This document shows positions 3,504-13,241 of a stretch of DNA of 13,241 nucleotides, piece after piece. The notes under the pieces were generated by a model that saw only the letters and a program-made list of their open reading frames with translations, ran no database searches and had not been told where the DNA came from. The stretch covers positions 1 through 13,241 of the forward strand of contig JBFMGU010000287.1 in NCBI GenBank assembly GCA_040752415.1. The letters run 5' to 3'. The DNA comes from Myxococcota bacterium. Its GTDB lineage: Bacteria; Myxococcota; JACRCW01. The position numbers were made by a program, and so were the translations under genes. Numbering within the stretch: position 1 is the stretch's first letter; each line of letters opens with the position of its first letter.

Positions 3504-3540
3504 GTTCGCCTTTGAGCGCGAACCCCGGCCCGCGCACAAG

Positions 3541-3831
3541 GGGCTGCGTCAAGACAAGTTGCCCACCTGGTCCTGACCGCCTCCCGCGGACCACGACCTG
3601 GAGTGCGGCGGGCCCTCGCCGCCCTGGTCAGCGTCGAGCGGTTTGGACAACCGTCAAGGGTCCAAGCGCCACGAGGCAGGGCCTCACCCGACGTCATTGA
3701 GCCCCGGGGCTGTTCGGCCCGTTGTGAACGCGCTCGGCGCCGACCAGGGCGGCGAGGGCCCGCCGCACTCCAGGTATTGGTCCGCTCACGACGTCTGCAA
3801 CCCCACTGGGCATCTTGTTCTGACGCAGCCC
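3541..3831. mobile_element. MITE-like non-autonomous element, 291 bp, 25-bp imperfect TIRs, 4-bp CAAG flanking duplication
   Basis: Left end GGGCTGCGTCAAGACAAGTTGCCCA (3541-3565) matches the reverse complement of 3807-3831, GGGCTGCGTCAGAACAAGATGCCCA, at 22/25. CAAG lies at 3537-3540 and 3832-3835. No credible ORF inside. Confidence 0.7.
3596..3775. repeat. Inverted REP-like doublet (REPIN/BIME-like) nested in the MITE
   Basis: Perfect 34-bp inverted repeat ACCTGGAGTGCGGCGGGCCCTCGCCGCCCTGGTC (3596-3629 / 3742-3775). Each unit is GGAG plus a palindrome GCGGCG-n6-CGCCGC. Imperfect pairing extends outward (GCGGACCA) and inward to ACAAC/GTTGT (3650/3721). Confidence 0.8.
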
Positions 3832-4083
3832 CAAGCCCCGCCCCCCGGGCAAAGCAAAGCAACTGGCGCGAGCGGCATTTCGCGGCAGGGACGTTGGCCG
3901 CGGCCACGCGCGGTTCGGGCAGCGGGCAACCCGCCACTTTCCCTCGGCCGAACGGAGCGCTTAGGACGCGTAGGAACAGGGCCGAAGTGGGTCGGATTCA
4001 CGCATTCCCTTCGTCCCCGACGGGGCATGAAGGCGCAGATTGTTGATCCGCGGATCCCACGCAGAAAGCAACTCTTTCTGGAT

Positions 4084-4311: not shown

Positions 4312-4506
4312 CCTTCCCCAACCTGTGCATGTCGACCCTGCAGGTAGGAGCAACCGGACCCGGTTGTGTCCTGACGCCGCAAGGAACAGGTCCGCTGCGT
4401 GGCGGAGCCTGGATTCTCGCCGTGCCCAATCCCCCCCGGGAGCCGCTCACCCCGCCGCACGCGGCGTGGCCAAGCACCGCCCCATCCGCGACCAGGAGAC
4501 ACCGCA

Positions 4507-7500
4507 ATGAAACATCCTCCCTTCCCACGTGTCACATGGCTGCTCATGGCTGCGCTGGCTGCGCCGGTTGCTTCCGTGGGCTGCACCCAGCCATCCGGTG
4601 AGGAATGTCCGGACGGCAGCGCCCCCGACGAGGACGGCAACTGCCCGGACACCGGCGGCAACAACAACGGCTCCACCAGCAGCGGTGGTGGTGGCTCCTC
4701 CACCAGTGACGTCTCCAGCAACGGTGGGAGCACCAGCACCGGCGGCAGCACCAGCAATGGCGGCAGCACCAGTGGGAGCACCAGCACCGGTGGCAGCACC
4801 AGTGGGAGCACCAGCAGCACCAGCAGTGGGGGCGGAGACCTCCAGTGTCGGCCCGGCTGCGTGCCCAACTTCGACAACACCGAGTGCATCGACTCGTTGA
4901 CCGGCGGGGAGTGCGTGGACAACGGCACCTCCACCAGCAGCAGCGGCGGGATTGACACGCCCTACTGCCGCAACGGCGAAACCGCGCTGTACAACGGCCA
5001 GGAGATCGACTGTCGTTCCGAGGCCACCTGGGGCGCCTGCAACGGGCCCACGCGCAGCGGCGGCAATGACCAGCACCGCGCGGCGTGCCAGCTCTTCTGC
5101 AACGTGGATGAGATTGCCTCGGGCCTGCCCCCGTGCGACCCGGCCCCCTCCGAGAACAGCAACTGCATGCAGTGCCACAACGGCGCCGGTCCCAATGACC
5201 CGCGCTACAGCGGCGGCGGTCTGGAGGATCCGCACCCCTGGCGCTCCGCGGGCGGCCAGGCCCTGAGCTGCGTGAGCTGCCACGGCGGCGACGCCGAGAG
5301 CGGCATGTACAAGGACCGCGCGCACGTCTGTCCCCCGCCGGACATCGAGCAGATCCGCGACAACGGTGAGCCGCGCTGGGAAGGGGTGATCCTGGACCAG
5401 TACGGTCCGCGCGCGTGGAGCCGCTACCTGCACAAGAGCGGCCTGGACAAGAGCCAGACGGACGGCATCCTGGGCATCCCGGACTCCTGGACCTGCCTGG
5501 GCCGCGACGGCTCACCCACCCGAACCGTCACGAAGACGGACTATCTGCAGTTCCTGGCCCCCGGTGACCTGCGCGTGGTGGAGACCGGCAAGAGCTGCGG
5601 CGCCTGCCACGTCAACCAGTCCAAGGCCATGCCGCGCAGCGTGATCGGCACCAGCATCGGTCTCATCTCCGGCTCGCGCTTCGTGTTCGGCATTCCCGTG
5701 GCCGTCGTGGGCCGCAACCCGTGGGCGGTGGACTACGGTGTGCGCGACATCACCGCGCTGCAGAACCCGCAGGGCCCCTCCACCATGGACTTCATCGAGG
5801 CGGGCCAGGTGACCAGCCTGATGGAGCCGCGCTTCGTGCAGGACTTCGAGAGCAACGTCAATGTCCAGACCGTCACCGTGGCGCAGATGGCCCAGGGCGT
5901 GGAGTCCAACGCCAACCTGGACCAGCAGGCCTGGATCACCTACGGCTACAACCGCATCCGCGACCCCAACAGCGACCTGGCCAAGGCCATTGGCGTCACC
6001 TTCTACAAGCAGTGCGGTGACTGCCACGCCGGCGACAGCGGCCAGAACAACACCACCGCCGACTACCGCGGCAGCGGGTGCGCGGCGTGCCACATGGAGT
6101 ACGGATTCGAGGGTCGCTACCGCGGCCTGGATCCCAACCTGAACCGCGGTGAGCCCATCAACCCGGACTTCATCTACCCCGGCGAGCGTCCCCACGTGCG
6201 GGAGCACGTCATCCGCGGCAAGTACCGTCGCGTGGCGCGCCAGGGCCAGGCCGACCAGATCATCTACGGCATCAACTCGGTGCGCGCGTGCATTGGCTGT
6301 CACCAGGGCTCCAACCGCACCGTGCTGCAGTACGTGGGCATCCGCCTGGACCAGAACCAGGACGTGGTGAACAACCGCCAGTTCCCCGGCAATCCCATCG
6401 TCGCCCGCTTTGCCAATGAGTTCCAGGGCCGCGACGGCGTGGAACTGTACAACATCCCGTACGGTCAGAACGTCAATGACCGCACCACGCTGGTCAACAA
6501 CCGCGCCGCCACCCAGTACGTTCTCTATGAGGACTATGGCTGGCGAAACATCTTCTATGACATCAACCTGGGTGGCACCCCCAACGCCAATGACTTTGGC
6601 AACCGCGCCGCCACCAACCGTGACGACACGCCGGCGGACATCCACTACGAGCGCGGCCTGGAGTGCTACGACTGCCACACCTCCGGGGAGCTCCACGGCT
6701 CGGGCCGCATCTACGCCCGTGCGGACCACGCGCTGGCGGTGATGTGTGAGAGCTGCCACGGCAACGCCGACTCCTATGCCGCGCTAAGCCAGAACGGCTT
6801 TGCGGTGGACCGCTTCGGCACCGAGCTGAAGCACGTCTACAAGGACCAGACCGGCCGCTACTACCTGATTGGCAAGCGTGACGGCGTGCCGCACTTCATC
6901 CCGCAGGTGAAGGACCTGGTGAACAGCAACAGCCAGGTGACCAACCCGCGCAACAACCAGCCGCTGTATTCGGCCAACGCGGACTTCGCCATGGGGCGCA
7001 TGGACTTTGACCCCACCAACGGCGACGGACCGCTGCAGAACGTGGCCCAGCTGGACCAGGCCCTGCGCGCGCGCAACTTCAGCCACCTGGGCTCACCCAC
7101 CAACAAGGGCGGCGTGGCCTGCCAGACCTGCCACACCTCCTGGCAGAACCAGTGCGTGGGTTGTCACCTGGACCTGCAGGCCCGTCCCAACGTCGACGCG
7201 TACACGCAGATCTCCGCGCACTACGCCAACAACAACACCGGCGGCGTGCCCAACGTGGGCTTCCCCTGGGCCAATGACATCAACCAGAACTTCGTCAACA
7301 ACGTGAACGGTGAGTACGTGTTCACCACGCAGAACGCCAACTTCACGTACATTGACATCACCACGTTCTACATCGGTGTGGGCAGCCGCGGGCGCATCGT
7401 TCCCTTCACGCCCATGCACCAGTGGTACAACTACATCGACGCCAACGGTGACCGGCTGCAGGACGTCATGGTGATGCTGGGCGTGCAGCAGGCGGCCACC

Positions 7501-8223
7501 AATGCCAACTACACCTACGGCGCGGTGGCGGCGGCCAAGGGCCTGTTCTCCGACCGCATGGGCGCGGGCTCTTCGGCCGGCAACCGCAACCGCATGACGG
7601 CGTCCGGCGGCTACCACCAGTTCATGCCGCACACCCAGCGTGGTCGTCCCACCAGCCAGTCCTGGGGCGGCTTCGGCACGGCGTGCTTCCACTGCCACCT
7701 CACGCAGGGCACGGCCAACAACACCAGCGCGGTGGACCTGGTGCGCACCACCACGGGCCTTGGCGCCATCACGTACAAGAAGTTCGCCGCCGACAAGTGG
7801 GGCTGCCCCATGAACTTCACCAATTGCGCGGCCAACGCCACCGTGAACCAGCCGGCCGGCATTGCCGACTGCACCAACGGCACCGCGCTGGACAACCAGG
7901 CCCGCCTGTTCCTGTTTGACGGCAACGCCAACCTGTGCCCGCCGTCCACCGCCAACAACAACCCGCAGAACATGTTCGCGGATTATGACCAGTGGGTGAC
8001 GGCCTCGGGTGTGGCCAATGCCAAGAACAGCCACAAGATGGTGGAGTTCGGTGGCGTGCAGCGTCAGGGTGCCATTGACCCGGAGGCCGCCGGTCCGCTG
8101 GGTCTGCAGACGCTGCAGCTCCTCAACAACCTCAACAACAGCGGCATTGTGCTCACGCAGTGGGTGGACTGGAACGGCGTCCGCTGCAACGTGAACACCT
8201 GCCCCAACGGCTTCTTCCAATAG
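4507..8223 (+). CDS. Large multiheme c-type cytochrome lipoprotein (1238 aa, 11 CxxCH)
   Basis: AGGAG at 4494-4498 before ATG 4507; signal MKHPPFPRVTWLLMAALAAPVASVG-C. CxxCH starting at 5164 CMQCH, 5269 CVSCH, 5596 CGACH, 6013 CGDCH, 6079 CAACH, 6289 CIGCH, 6664 CYDCH, 6745 CESCH, 7120 CQTCH, 7153 CVGCH, 7684 CFHCH. Strong third-position C/G bias in this frame. Confidence 0.93.
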   Translation: MKHPPFPRVTWLLMAALAAPVASVGCTQPSGEECPDGSAPDEDGNCPDTGGNNNGSTSSGGGGSSTSDVSSNGGSTSTGGSTSNGGSTSGSTSTGGSTSGSTSSTSSGGGDLQCRPGCVPNFDNTECIDSLTGGECVDNGTSTSSSGGIDTPYCRNGETALYNGQEIDCRSEATWGACNGPTRSGGNDQHRAACQLFCNVDEIASGLPPCDPAPSENSNCMQCHNGAGPNDPRYSGGGLEDPHPWRSAGGQALSCVSCHGGDAESGMYKDRAHVCPPPDIEQIRDNGEPRWEGVILDQYGPRAWSRYLHKSGLDKSQTDGILGIPDSWTCLGRDGSPTRTVTKTDYLQFLAPGDLRVVETGKSCGACHVNQSKAMPRSVIGTSIGLISGSRFVFGIPVAVVGRNPWAVDYGVRDITALQNPQGPSTMDFIEAGQVTSLMEPRFVQDFESNVNVQTVTVAQMAQGVESNANLDQQAWITYGYNRIRDPNSDLAKAIGVTFYKQCGDCHAGDSGQNNTTADYRGSGCAACHMEYGFEGRYRGLDPNLNRGEPINPDFIYPGERPHVREHVIRGKYRRVARQGQADQIIYGINSVRACIGCHQGSNRTVLQYVGIRLDQNQDVVNNRQFPGNPIVARFANEFQGRDGVELYNIPYGQNVNDRTTLVNNRAATQYVLYEDYGWRNIFYDINLGGTPNANDFGNRAATNRDDTPADIHYERGLECYDCHTSGELHGSGRIYARADHALAVMCESCHGNADSYAALSQNGFAVDRFGTELKHVYKDQTGRYYLIGKRDGVPHFIPQVKDLVNSNSQVTNPRNNQPLYSANADFAMGRMDFDPTNGDGPLQNVAQLDQALRARNFSHLGSPTNKGGVACQTCHTSWQNQCVGCHLDLQARPNVDAYTQISAHYANNNTGGVPNVGFPWANDINQNFVNNVNGEYVFTTQNANFTYIDITTFYIGVGSRGRIVPFTPMHQWYNYIDANGDRLQDVMVMLGVQQAATNANYTYGAVAAAKGLFSDRMGAGSSAGNRNRMTASGGYHQFMPHTQRGRPTSQSWGGFGTACFHCHLTQGTANNTSAVDLVRTTTGLGAITYKKFAADKWGCPMNFTNCAANATVNQPAGIADCTNGTALDNQARLFLFDGNANLCPPSTANNNPQNMFADYDQWVTASGVANAKNSHKMVEFGGVQRQGAIDPEAAGPLGLQTLQLLNNLNNSGIVLTQWVDWNGVRCNVNTCPNGFFQ
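4723..4836 (+). repeat. In-frame 15/18-bp tandem repeats encoding a (G)GSTS(T/N) Ser/Gly/Thr linker
   Basis: Units of GGN-(GGN)-AGCACCAG(C/T); 4759-4788 and 4789-4818 match at 28/30. Confidence 0.85.
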
Positions 8224-11711: not shown

Positions 11712-11754
11712 GGCGCTTCCCGACGATGCGGGGATGTGGGCTAGATTCCGCGGC

Positions 11755-12876
11755 ATGGCGTTGCTGGGGCGCACGCTGTGGGGCCTGCTCGTGGTGGTGT
11801 GCGTGGCGCGGGAGGCGCGCGCGGACGCCAGGGATCCGGGCGCGGACTTCGACGGGCCGCTCGGCGTGCTGCAGCTCCATCCCATCCGGCAGTCGCTCCT
11901 GGACGTGATGAACCGCGGCTCGGTGGCGCATCCGTGGCTGCGCGCGGAGCGCAACGTCGGGAACATCTGGAACTCCGAGACGCATCTCTCGCTGGGGTCG
12001 GGACGACGTGCGCTGCACATGGTGGATGGGCAGCAGGAGAGCCTGGTGTTGGACGCGGGCATTCCCGTCGGGAGGTTCCTGGCGCTGGGCGTGCGCGGCG
12101 GGATGAGCCGGATGTGGGGCGGCGGACCGGTGGACCAGTCCATCGAGGACTTCCACCGTCAGTTCGACTTCTACAACTTCTCGCGCCACCACGCGCCGGC
12201 CAACCGCACCAGCATCATCCTGGAGTCCGACGGGAAACGGCTGCTCACCTGGCACGGCAACGTGGCGTACCTGCAGAACGTGGTGCTGACGACGTACCTG
12301 CGCGCGCTGGAGAACCGCACCACGCGCGTGATGGTCCGCTCCGACGTGCGCGTTCCCACCGGCGACATCTCCCGCGCGCTGGGACTGCTCCGCCCGGAGG
12401 CGGCGGTGGGCATCAGTGTGTGGCGCCGTTTCCGTCGGGTGCTGGCGTTCCACCTGGCGGGCGCGGCCATCTGGCACGGCAACCGCGAGCTGGCGGGATT
12501 GAAGGTGGAGGAGGTCCAGCTCGACGGAGAAGTGTCCCTGGAGCTGCGCCTCTCCCCGTGGCTGAGCCTGGTGGCGGAGGACAAGCTGCAGAGCCCGCTG
12601 TTCCAGCGCACCAAGACGCACGTGCTGGCGCAGGACTCCCTGCCGCTGCGCGCCACGGCGTGGAACGGCTATTTCACGCCGGTCAACATCATCACCGGCG
12701 GCGCGCGCCTGCGCCTGCCCGACGGCACGCACCTCTCGGTGTTCGTGGGTGAGGACTTCATGTTCTGCACCGCGTGCTGGCGGGAGCGGTACAGCCGGGA
12801 GACCAACTCGCCGGACATCTCGCTCTCCCTGGTGGTGGCGAAGTCCCTGTCGGTGACGACGGGGGGCCCGCCCTGA
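11755..12876 (+). CDS. DUF3187-like outer-membrane beta-barrel protein
   Basis: Signal peptide MALLGRTLWGLLVVVCVAREARA (start 11755; alternative 11734); GGGPVDQSIEDFHRQFDF resembles the DUF3187 GG.LD..I..FH..F motif; amphipathic strands; C-terminal VGEDF...SPDISLSL. TAGATT lies 7 nt before ATG 11755. Confidence 0.7.
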   Translation: MALLGRTLWGLLVVVCVAREARADARDPGADFDGPLGVLQLHPIRQSLLDVMNRGSVAHPWLRAERNVGNIWNSETHLSLGSGRRALHMVDGQQESLVLDAGIPVGRFLALGVRGGMSRMWGGGPVDQSIEDFHRQFDFYNFSRHHAPANRTSIILESDGKRLLTWHGNVAYLQNVVLTTYLRALENRTTRVMVRSDVRVPTGDISRALGLLRPEAAVGISVWRRFRRVLAFHLAGAAIWHGNRELAGLKVEEVQLDGEVSLELRLSPWLSLVAEDKLQSPLFQRTKTHVLAQDSLPLRATAWNGYFTPVNIITGGARLRLPDGTHLSVFVGEDFMFCTACWRERYSRETNSPDISLSLVVAKSLSVTTGGPP

Positions 12877-12961
12877 GCGGCTCACCCAAGACAGCACCTG
12901 GGCCCGGGCGAGGGTTCAAGCCGCGTAGGTCACGAAAAGGGTGACCGGGGTGACCGGCGCC

Positions 12962-13130
12962 CTGGAGTGCGGTGCCAAACGCGCTCCGTCGTGAAAGCGG
13001 CCCAGCACCGCCCTGGCTTGGGCATTCCCGGTCAGGGATTCCACGTTGGAAACCCCATCACCGGGCGCCCCGATCCAGGGCGGTGCTTGACGTCGTGGAG
13101 CGTTCATCCGTGGGTCGCACCGCACTCCAG
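12962..13130. repeat. Second inverted REP-like doublet, same family as 3596-3775
   Basis: CTGGAGTGCGGTGC (12962-12975)...AGCACCGCCCTGG (13004-13016), then the inverted copy CCAGGGCGGTGCT (13075-13087)...GCACCGCACTCCAG (13117-13130). The central spacer is also self-complementary (CCCGGT/ACCGGG, TTCCA/TGGAA). Confidence 0.8.
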
Positions 13131-13241
13131 AGGGTGTCTCGGAATATCTGGCGGCGATTGAACCGGAAACCCCGGTCACCCGGCCGCGAGGCGGAGGAGA
13201 CCCTTGTTCCAGGCCGGGAGCAGCTTCCTCAGGTTGTGAGC
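13131..13241 (-). mobile_element. Downstream end of an IS1182/IS5-type insertion sequence (continues beyond window)
   Basis: Transposase-like C-terminus on the minus strand with its stop ~45 nt from an IR-like end (G)AGGGTGTCTCGGAATA at 13130/13131, preceded by CCAG. Only one end is visible. Confidence 0.65.
13176..13241 (-). CDS. C-terminal 21 aa of a DDE transposase (IS1182-like); partial
   Basis: Minus strand reads AHNLRKLLPAWNKGLLRLAAG-stop (TGA at 13178-13176). AHNLRKL is the characteristic terminal helix motif of IS1182-family (and related IS5/IS4) transposases. Confidence 0.65.
   Translation of the reverse strand, partial: AHNLRKLLPAWNKGLLRLAAG

Follow-up and report, generated by a model that had tools for sequence, protein, structure and literature searches.

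A probable IS1182-family insertion sequence at a fixed junction of a long palindromic repeat in a Myxococcota bacterium

We propose that the last 111 bp of the stretch of DNA that we analysed (the window: 13,241 nt, which is the entire contig C209 of an assembly of 11.0 Mb in 520 contigs) are the right end of an insertion sequence (IS) with at least 13 copies that has expanded recently and that targets a palindromic repeat, PE-A; we consider these claims, taken jointly, to be likely. At this locus, an IS1182-like IS has probably inserted into the right arm of a PE-A, 3' of a DUF3187-like gene, and the junction is at the same bond in every case. The features of the locus are:

11734-12876, strand not given: DUF3187-like gene (from a match to DUF3187), upstream of PE-A; its stop is 53 nt before the left outer arm
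12929-12961, plus strand: left outer arm of PE-A (GTCACGAAAAGGGTGACCGGGGTGACCGGCGCC), recognised from arm homologues in other PE-A copies
12958-12972, minus strand: second copy of the target (minus-strand sequence CCGCACTCCAGGGCG), intact and unoccupied, within this PE-A's left arm, from the 15-mer search
12962-13130, no strand: core of PE-A, 169 nt, from CTGGAGTGCGGTGC to GCACCGCACTCCAG, from motif positions and inverted repeats (the "REP" of the original prediction)
13120-13130, plus strand: left half of the occupied target, CCGCACTCCAG (empty sites read CACTCCAG then GGCGCC)
13131-13140, plus strand: terminal inverted repeat (TIR) of the IS, AGGGTGTCTC, the same in 13/13 right ends and 9/9 left ends
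13131-13241, plus strand: right end of the IS, 111 nt, to the contig end
13176-13241, minus strand: final 21 codons and stop of the transposase gene (AHNLRKLLPAWNKGLLRLAAG, then stop), from translation

The core ends in ...GCACCGCACTCCAG at position 13,130 and the next letters are AGGGTGTCTCGGAATA (13,123 to 13,130 is CACTCCAG, then AGGGTGTCTCGGAATA), just as was first described. The IS might also be taken to start at G13130 or A13129 instead of 13131. A transposase tail with AHNLRKL had also been noticed at the end of the window, and it is there: the minus strand from 13,241 to 13,179 translates to AHNLRKLLPAWNKGLLRLAAG, and a stop codon follows at 13,178 to 13,176.

When we compared the last 141 nt of the window to the rest of the genome with BLAST, there were matches at the ends of 12 other contigs. 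The 10-mer AGGGTGTCTC has 36 exact matches genome-wide; 22 of these run on as the IS, and the other 14 are unrelated. The 22 IS ends comprise 13 right ends, which continue as ...GGAATATCTGG and contain the transposase's stop codon, and nine left ends, which continue as ...AGTTTGATGTG and have an ATG 53 nt in, reading MPRVIEPDRTQQVLLPRAVEEWVG. Within each type, the sequences are identical over the 50-125 nt that were assembled. A matching inverted repeat had been expected at the far end of the element, and we found it (AGGGTGTCTC, identical at 10/10 positions).

All 22 IS ends are at contig ends (each is 50-125 nt from one). C209 itself breaks off 111 nt past the junction of repeat and IS, still within the IS. 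There are 36 cases in the assembly of exact 127-nt overlaps between contig ends, so contigs break where the k = 127 graph reaches a repeat, and C209 breaks at 13,241 because the IS is a repeat that is longer than the assembly k-mer of 127. This one IS accounts for at least 22 contig ends of the 520-contig assembly, which explains a class of breaks. Could the junctions instead be artefacts, in which the assembler joined repeats into chimeras at the contig ends? The assembly is fragmented (520 contigs) and no IS end is more than 125 nt from a contig end, as an artefact might produce, but we give this explanation almost no credence. The contigs reach up to 126 nt into the repeat, which is what k = 127 should yield, so the junctions are spanned by k-mers from the reads, and the junction is identical in 22 independent contigs even though their unique flanks differ.

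PE-A is a repeat of 250-290 nt with about 35-40 copies, which are intergenic. Its core of about 150-230 nt lies between CTGGAG on the left and CTCCAG on the right, and beyond each of these is an outer arm. Empty copies, without the IS, read ...CACTCCAG and then GGCGCC...CTTCGTGAC, and the empty version with ...GCACCGCACTCCAG and then GGCGCC...CCGCTCACCCGCTTCGTGAC is in many contigs. Because the empty copies run past the junction into a right arm, the IS splits a 250-290-bp palindrome at the point where the core meets the right outer arm. In the window's PE-A, this arm must lie beyond the IS, and it is probably on contig C440. The target junction is present twice in each PE-A, once per arm and in inverted orientation, about 40 bp up a hairpin stem of about 100 bp. 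Thus, the IS is not exactly at the boundary of the repeat, as originally described, but inside the stem of the palindrome. Three empty copies of PE-A are predicted to form near-perfect hairpins, with folding energies (dG) of -125 to -168 kcal/mol, versus -54 to -68 kcal/mol for shuffled sequences.

REPs and REPINs are short palindromes (about 20-40 nt) with high copy number that flank the gene for a RAYT (a Y1 transposase). PE-A is not a classical REP, because its units are too long and too few and because both of the genome's Y1_Tnp (RAYT-like) genes (C12:36-377 and C24:5900-6232) are flanked by other repeats (such as CAATGAGATTGGCAGGCAACA...) and not by the PE-A core.

We also note some features of these repeats. 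In the palindromes that contain this core, the two arms of any one copy are always complementary (GGCGCC/GGCGCC, CCACGAC/GTCGTGG, GCGCTCGCY/RGCGAGCGC, or GGACACAACC/GGTTGTGTCC). The core's termini, CTGGAGTGCGG...CCGCACTCCAG, are common to at least three families of palindromes with different outer arms; examples of the core in differing families are at C224:35169-35263, C5:21951-22134, C300:4602-4763, and C231:6977-7164. One subfamily of PE-A is nested within a larger repeat that has runs of the heptad (GAAGTCA)n at its bounds (GGGGAATCCCCACAGGGA on one side and GGCAGGGAGGGAAGTGCC on the other). This nesting is seen at the contig ends C31, C80, C60, C293, C299, C310, C140, and C371, and the subfamily is home to most of the IS copies.

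Every one of the 22 IS ends adjoins CTCCAG or CTGGAG (or, in one case, the variant CTGGAAG) at the junction between the core and the outer arm of a palindrome. If the IS is turned to lie on the right, then the letters before it are CTGGAG 15 times, CTCCAG six times, and CTGGAAG once. The palindrome is PE-A for 21 of the ends; at C115, the palindrome is a related one whose arms resemble the arms of C5 and C224. Six of the flanks, including the window's, are core-type (...TTCGCACCGCACTCCAG and then the IS). The other 16 are arm-type (arm, CTGGAG, and then the IS): 15 of these, including C310 with its CTGGAAG, share the arm GTCACGAAG...GGCGCC in this or a variant form, and the sixteenth is C115, whose arm is different (...GCGCTCGCT). 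Core-type flanks adjoin the right end of the IS four times and the left end twice, as compared to nine and six times for arm-type flanks, so there is no bias in orientation (Fisher p = 1).

The 15-mer CCGCACTCCAGGGCG is found 57 times in the genome and 0 times if read backwards, and it is found at most once (0-1 times) in each of 40 relatives. The sequences that continue from CCGCACTCCAG across the genome are:

GTCG: 178 (MITE type)
GTTG: 18 (MITE type)
GGCG: 57 (PE-A type, empty)
AGGG: 6 (the IS)

None of the MITE-type junctions (CCGCACTCCAG and then GTCG or GTTG, 178 + 18 or about 196) are occupied by the IS, and neither are any of the approximately 190 CTCCAGGGCG 10-mers that lie outside the context of the core. 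If all core junctions were equally likely to be hit, then the chance of having at least 13 of 14 events in PE-A would be p = 7e-8, and if all 250 of the CTCCAGGGCG 10-mers (with about 190 outside the core context) were equally likely, p = 3e-8. With 22/22 ends at the core/arm junction and 57 such junctions empty, the placement of the IS in the repeat is strongly non-random: this is site-specific targeting. So, the original idea of a REP-targeting element holds up across all of the IS ends in the genome, with all 22 at a junction of a palindromic repeat, though that repeat is not a classical REP. As PE-A is occupied while the MITE-type junctions are empty, the choice of site would depend on bases to the left and right of the cut, on the hairpin context, or on both.

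The arms that adjoin the IS vary while the ends of the IS are identical, which implies independent insertions into older repeats. Alternatively, the outer arms (GTCACGAAG...GGCGCCCTGGAG) could be long terminal repeats that belong to the IS and move with it, in which case there would be no targeting. Eight of the arm-type flanks (C31, C60, C80, C121, C299, C485, C38, and C339) do have arms that are identical or that differ only at the first base. However, the same arms and core are present without the IS in many places, six of the IS ends adjoin the core instead of an arm, and other arms differ strongly (C488, C477, C117, C440, C209, C177, and C115) even though the IS ends are 100% identical. 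We therefore view co-mobilisation as extremely unlikely and we continue with insertion into pre-existing repeats.

The IS probably belongs to the IS1182 family, as was originally suggested. Members of this family have a DDE transposase that matches NF033551, or DUF772 plus DDE_Tnp_1 and DDE_Tnp_1_6. Our IS is known here from the two termini of its transposase, and both of these fit the family. A degenerate version of the pattern AHNLRKLLP matched at 10 places in 185,579 genomes, and seven of these are copies of one IS from Nannocystis radixulma (loci L032-L039). Its transposase (P0001, 460 amino acids) scores 360 bits against NF033551 ("IS1182 family transposase"; the cut-off is 270 bits) and contains DUF772, DDE_Tnp_1, and DDE_Tnp_1_6. 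AHNLRKLLP is identical, and at the same C-terminal position, in the Nannocystis transposase and its relatives. More generally, our IS has the conserved C-terminus of the IS1182 family (...AHNLRKL..., ending 10-15 residues before the stop). The Nannocystis IS is the closest full-length relative that we found: judging by the two termini, which is all that can be compared, it shares with our IS the C-terminal AHNLRKLLP, a collinear N-terminus, a TIR that starts with GAG, and a multi-copy state. In contrast to our IS, its insertions are at a plain CTAG, and no repeat is visible around them (its TIR is GAGCCTGCGC and CTAG is on both sides in 7/7 copies).

We also compared our peptides to 229 full-length proteins of the family, with 100 shuffles as the control. 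The N-terminal peptide had a median score of 30 at its own terminus, versus a maximum of 26 for the shuffles and a median of 22 for the rest of the proteins. For the C-terminal peptide, the corresponding values were 29, 26, and 21. The N-terminal IEPDRTQQVLLPRAVEEWVG aligns with P0257 and P0252, and by our own reading of those sequences, the family's wording is ..EPDQxxLLPxxLxEWV/LxxDH.. (the closest N-terminal matches have ..YEPDQLLLLPPSLHEWV.. where ours has ..IEPDRTQQVLLPRAVEEWV..). Among the top 150 representatives of P0001's family there was no obvious match to our termini, and P0257 and P0252 were the best for the N-terminus. With a home-made profile from 117 family proteins, the peptides fell where they should (positions 10-24 and 430-440 of 442), but with scores that were no better than for shuffles, and a search of the 23-24-amino-acid terminal peptides against Pfam and NCBIfam gave nothing. 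The TIR of at least 10 bp and the duplication of 2, 4, or 6 bp (which the flanks imply, and which is never on one contig) can be compared to the family's range of direct repeats, given in PMC7335449 as 2 to 60 bp from ISfinder.

Searches for the interior of the IS covered several collections. No contig of this genome holds it, according to tblastn with P0001 and with the transposase from C499, and DNA searches of 40 relatives had 0 matches. In 400 genomes of the phylum, the best match to the N-terminal peptide had E = 0.13; two matches to this peptide that we opened (L021 and L027) are not transposases. A degenerate N-terminal pattern had 0 matches in the genome and metagenome contig collections, a longer C-terminal pattern had 0 matches in metagenome contigs, and neither end of the IS matched a plasmid collection. 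Matches to PF13751, PF05598, and NF033551 within the same genome (C499, C342, and C279) were rejected as the interior since they are other elements. Two of the genome's other IS1182-family elements are at C499:5400-6611 (a 440-amino-acid frame) and C342:6063-6341 (a fragment at a contig end), and they differ at their termini from the IS that we studied.

The sequence of the junction is 5'-CCGCAC-TCCA-GGGCGCC-3' and the empty site reads CAC TCCA GGGCGCC. At occupied sites, one side is ...CACTCCAG and then the IS, and the other side, read from outside in, is GGCGCCCTGGAG and then the IS. The latter is equivalent to the IS followed by CTCCAGGGCGCC on the same strand, so together with the CACTCCAG side, it implies a duplication of the target. 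The length of the duplication depends on where the IS starts: it is CTCCAG (6 bp) if the IS starts with AGGG, TCCA (4 bp) if it starts with GAGGG, or CC (2 bp) if it starts with AGAGGG. We presume that the duplication is TCCA (13126-13129), with CC and CTCCAG as the alternatives. We favour 4 bp because the Nannocystis relative has CTAG on both sides in 7/7 copies and because IS1182-like MITEs from Paracoccus are described with 4-bp repeats (PMC11578231). A CCAG duplication had been predicted for the far end, and the flanks and the empty sites do imply a short duplication that would include CCAG.

We infer both the duplication and the pairing of flanks from separate contigs, and no contig has both flanks of one insertion. 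For 6/6 core-side flanks, the arm-side flank with the most similar arm adjoins the opposite end of the IS. These pairs are C209-C440 (the window's arm, GTCACGAAAAGGGTGA..., is most similar to C440), C177-C488, C289-C297, C17-C31/C80, C431-C117, and C508-C38/C339. This is the pattern expected from simple insertion with duplication.

Our model builds on what is directly seen: the constant junction, the empty sites, the insertions in both orientations, and the short duplication that the flanks imply. The transposase would recognise bases to the left and right of the cut, and it may also sense the stem or a cruciform. It would make 4-bp staggered cuts (TCCA), and the IS would start with GAG, as in the Nannocystis relative. 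Copies would thereby accumulate in non-coding repeats, as a "safe-haven" strategy.

Hairpins are the targets of IS1272 and TnSha1, which are IS1182-family elements from staphylococci, and according to PMC5678879 and PMC4923244, which both cite Siguier et al. 2015, some IS1182 members target palindromes. Our IS, which is probably from the same family, resembles IS1272 and TnSha1 as described there in that it inserts in the stem of palindromic or hairpin DNA and in both orientations. However, IS1272 is described in these papers as having no preference for primary sequence, as causing no duplication, and (like TnSha1) as deleting part of the hairpin. Our IS has a junction that is constant over at least 15 nt, an implied short duplication, and a core that is kept in at least six flanks.

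Nevertheless, simple insertion may not account for every copy. There are 15 arm-side flanks and only 6 core-side flanks (two-sided p = 0.08), which would fit with the loss of short contigs, with two IS in one PE-A, or with replacement of the core as for IS1272. If the last of these were the main mode, then the transposase would be directed by structure: both junctions of an extruded PE-A cruciform would be hit, the core would be replaced (giving arm-IS-arm), and simple insertions would be in the minority. PE-A is a very stable hairpin and the deletions by IS1272 and TnSha1 are a precedent, so the excess of arm-type flanks might be read this way. But in six flanks the core is complete as far as CTCCAG, and all six pair with an arm flank at the opposite end of the IS, which replacement of the core cannot give. 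The primary sequence is strictly constant, unlike at the targets of IS1272. The excess itself is not significant, and it could also result from lost short contigs (at least four left ends are missing, given 13 right ends versus nine left ends) or from pairs of IS in one PE-A, as the piece between them would be shorter than 1 kb and would have been filtered out. Overall, we think it is unlikely that core replacement is the main mode.

A mixed mechanism seems slightly less doubtful, and we offer it tentatively: the transposase might read PE-A as a cruciform and attack either one junction, leaving a TCCA duplication, or both, swapping the core of about 170-210 bp for the IS. Replacement of the core via both junctions would explain the 15:6 excess of arm flanks. 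If this is correct, then the IS would join sequence-specific targeting of a repeat to the stem-loop replacement of IS1272, which have so far been seen apart. A further point against simple insertion in every case is that we found only four contig ends that dangle in PE-A without the IS (C82, C140, C353, and C371). The ends of C82 and C140 (as reverse complement) have an exact 127-nt overlap; together they rebuild an empty PE-A site, and they break exactly at CTCCAG. A break at the insertion point hints that an occupied and an empty version are both in the sample, or that there is a paralogue.

The window also contains a MITE of 293 bp at 3540-3832 with the TIR GGGGCTGCGTCA(R)RAC. The original prediction proposed a three-tier system in which the family of this IS generated the REP-carrying MITE and mobilises it. 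The MITE does have the same core termini as PE-A (at 3598-3773), and its end at 3817-3832 (as reverse complement) matches the tip of the IS at 10/16 positions (GAGGGTGTCTCGGAAT versus GGGGCTGCGTCAGAAC), with 9/16 for its left end in the same register. The count of 10/16 is as originally given, but its significance is not compelling: p = 0.004 against random genomic 16-mers becomes a borderline p = 0.04 if we allow for two ends and five registers, and nothing matches beyond the tip. When we aligned 110 nt of each end of the MITE to each end of the IS, three of the four alignments scored below the mean for shuffled sequences, and the fourth had p = 0.02 (we did not inspect the alignment itself). 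The flanks disagree as well. Among the 21 complete copies of the MITE that were recovered by a strict pattern, TNA is found on the left of 13 and on the right of 13, and eight have identical 3-nt flanks. This implies that the MITE's duplication is 3 bp, TNA, unlike the (C)TCCA(G) of the IS. So the parallel that had been drawn between CNAG tetramers at the two elements fails, as the MITE is flanked by TNA instead; in addition, the G would be counted as both flank and element. Finally, the approximately 196 MITE-type junctions are never hit by the IS, and the TIR of the MITE is found on a different multi-copy element, also at contig ends. We conclude that the three-tier system is very unlikely and that the MITE, although it shares the core, probably belongs to another transposon system.

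The second element with the MITE's TIR (GGGGCTGCGTCAGAACAAGTTGGCCAATTCGG...) has a different interior. It is seen at the contig ends C139, C145, C162, C163, C168, C212, C265, C401, and C427 and also in C108. In C108:13257-14094 (838 bp, with the MITE's TIR) we did not find a convincing transposase frame, so the parent IS of the MITE was not found there.

A link of the kind that was proposed between IS and MITE is described for Paracoccus yeei in PMC11578231: ISPye18, of the IS1182 family, has derived MITEs (MITEPye1) and 4-bp direct repeats. Here, in contrast, the MITE shares no TIR, duplication, or target with the IS.

Insertion of an IS at a fixed site in repeats is already known from other elements, and our IS adds a real, site-specific case. 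The REP-targeting IS that are named in PMC1525189 include IS1397, ISKpn1, and ISPsy8 (IS3 family); IS621, ISPa11, ISPpu9, and ISPpu10 (IS110); ISRm22 (IS4); ISRm5 (IS256); and ISNm1106 (IS5). Like these, our IS occupies a fixed place in intergenic palindromic repeats, with 22/22 ends; for comparison, Tobes and Pareja 2006 (PMC1525189) give 7/7 and 10/10 among their ratios. Unlike our IS, the systems named there come from five families that do not include IS1182, and their targets are short REPs, where ours is a core/arm junction in a palindrome of 250-290 bp that has only about 35-40 copies. In a literature search, we did not find a report of a repeat-specific member of the IS1182 family. An IS1182-type element with a strict choice of sequence would be a sixth family beside these five, and it could readily be studied in contrast to IS1272, for which the shape of the hairpin is all that counts. 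Transposases that choose one 15-nt site in harmless repeats also illustrate how mobile DNA can increase in number and still leave its host alive, and the use of repeat-targeting transposases for site-directed insertion has been suggested (PMC1525189).

As for the rest of the window, Rfam identified 0 families in it. Positions 4399-8223 are a frame of 1274 amino acids that matches multi-haem cytochromes c (Cytochrome_C7, c3, and c554), and this frame includes a repeat region that is rich in Ser, Gly, and Thr (around 4650-4830).
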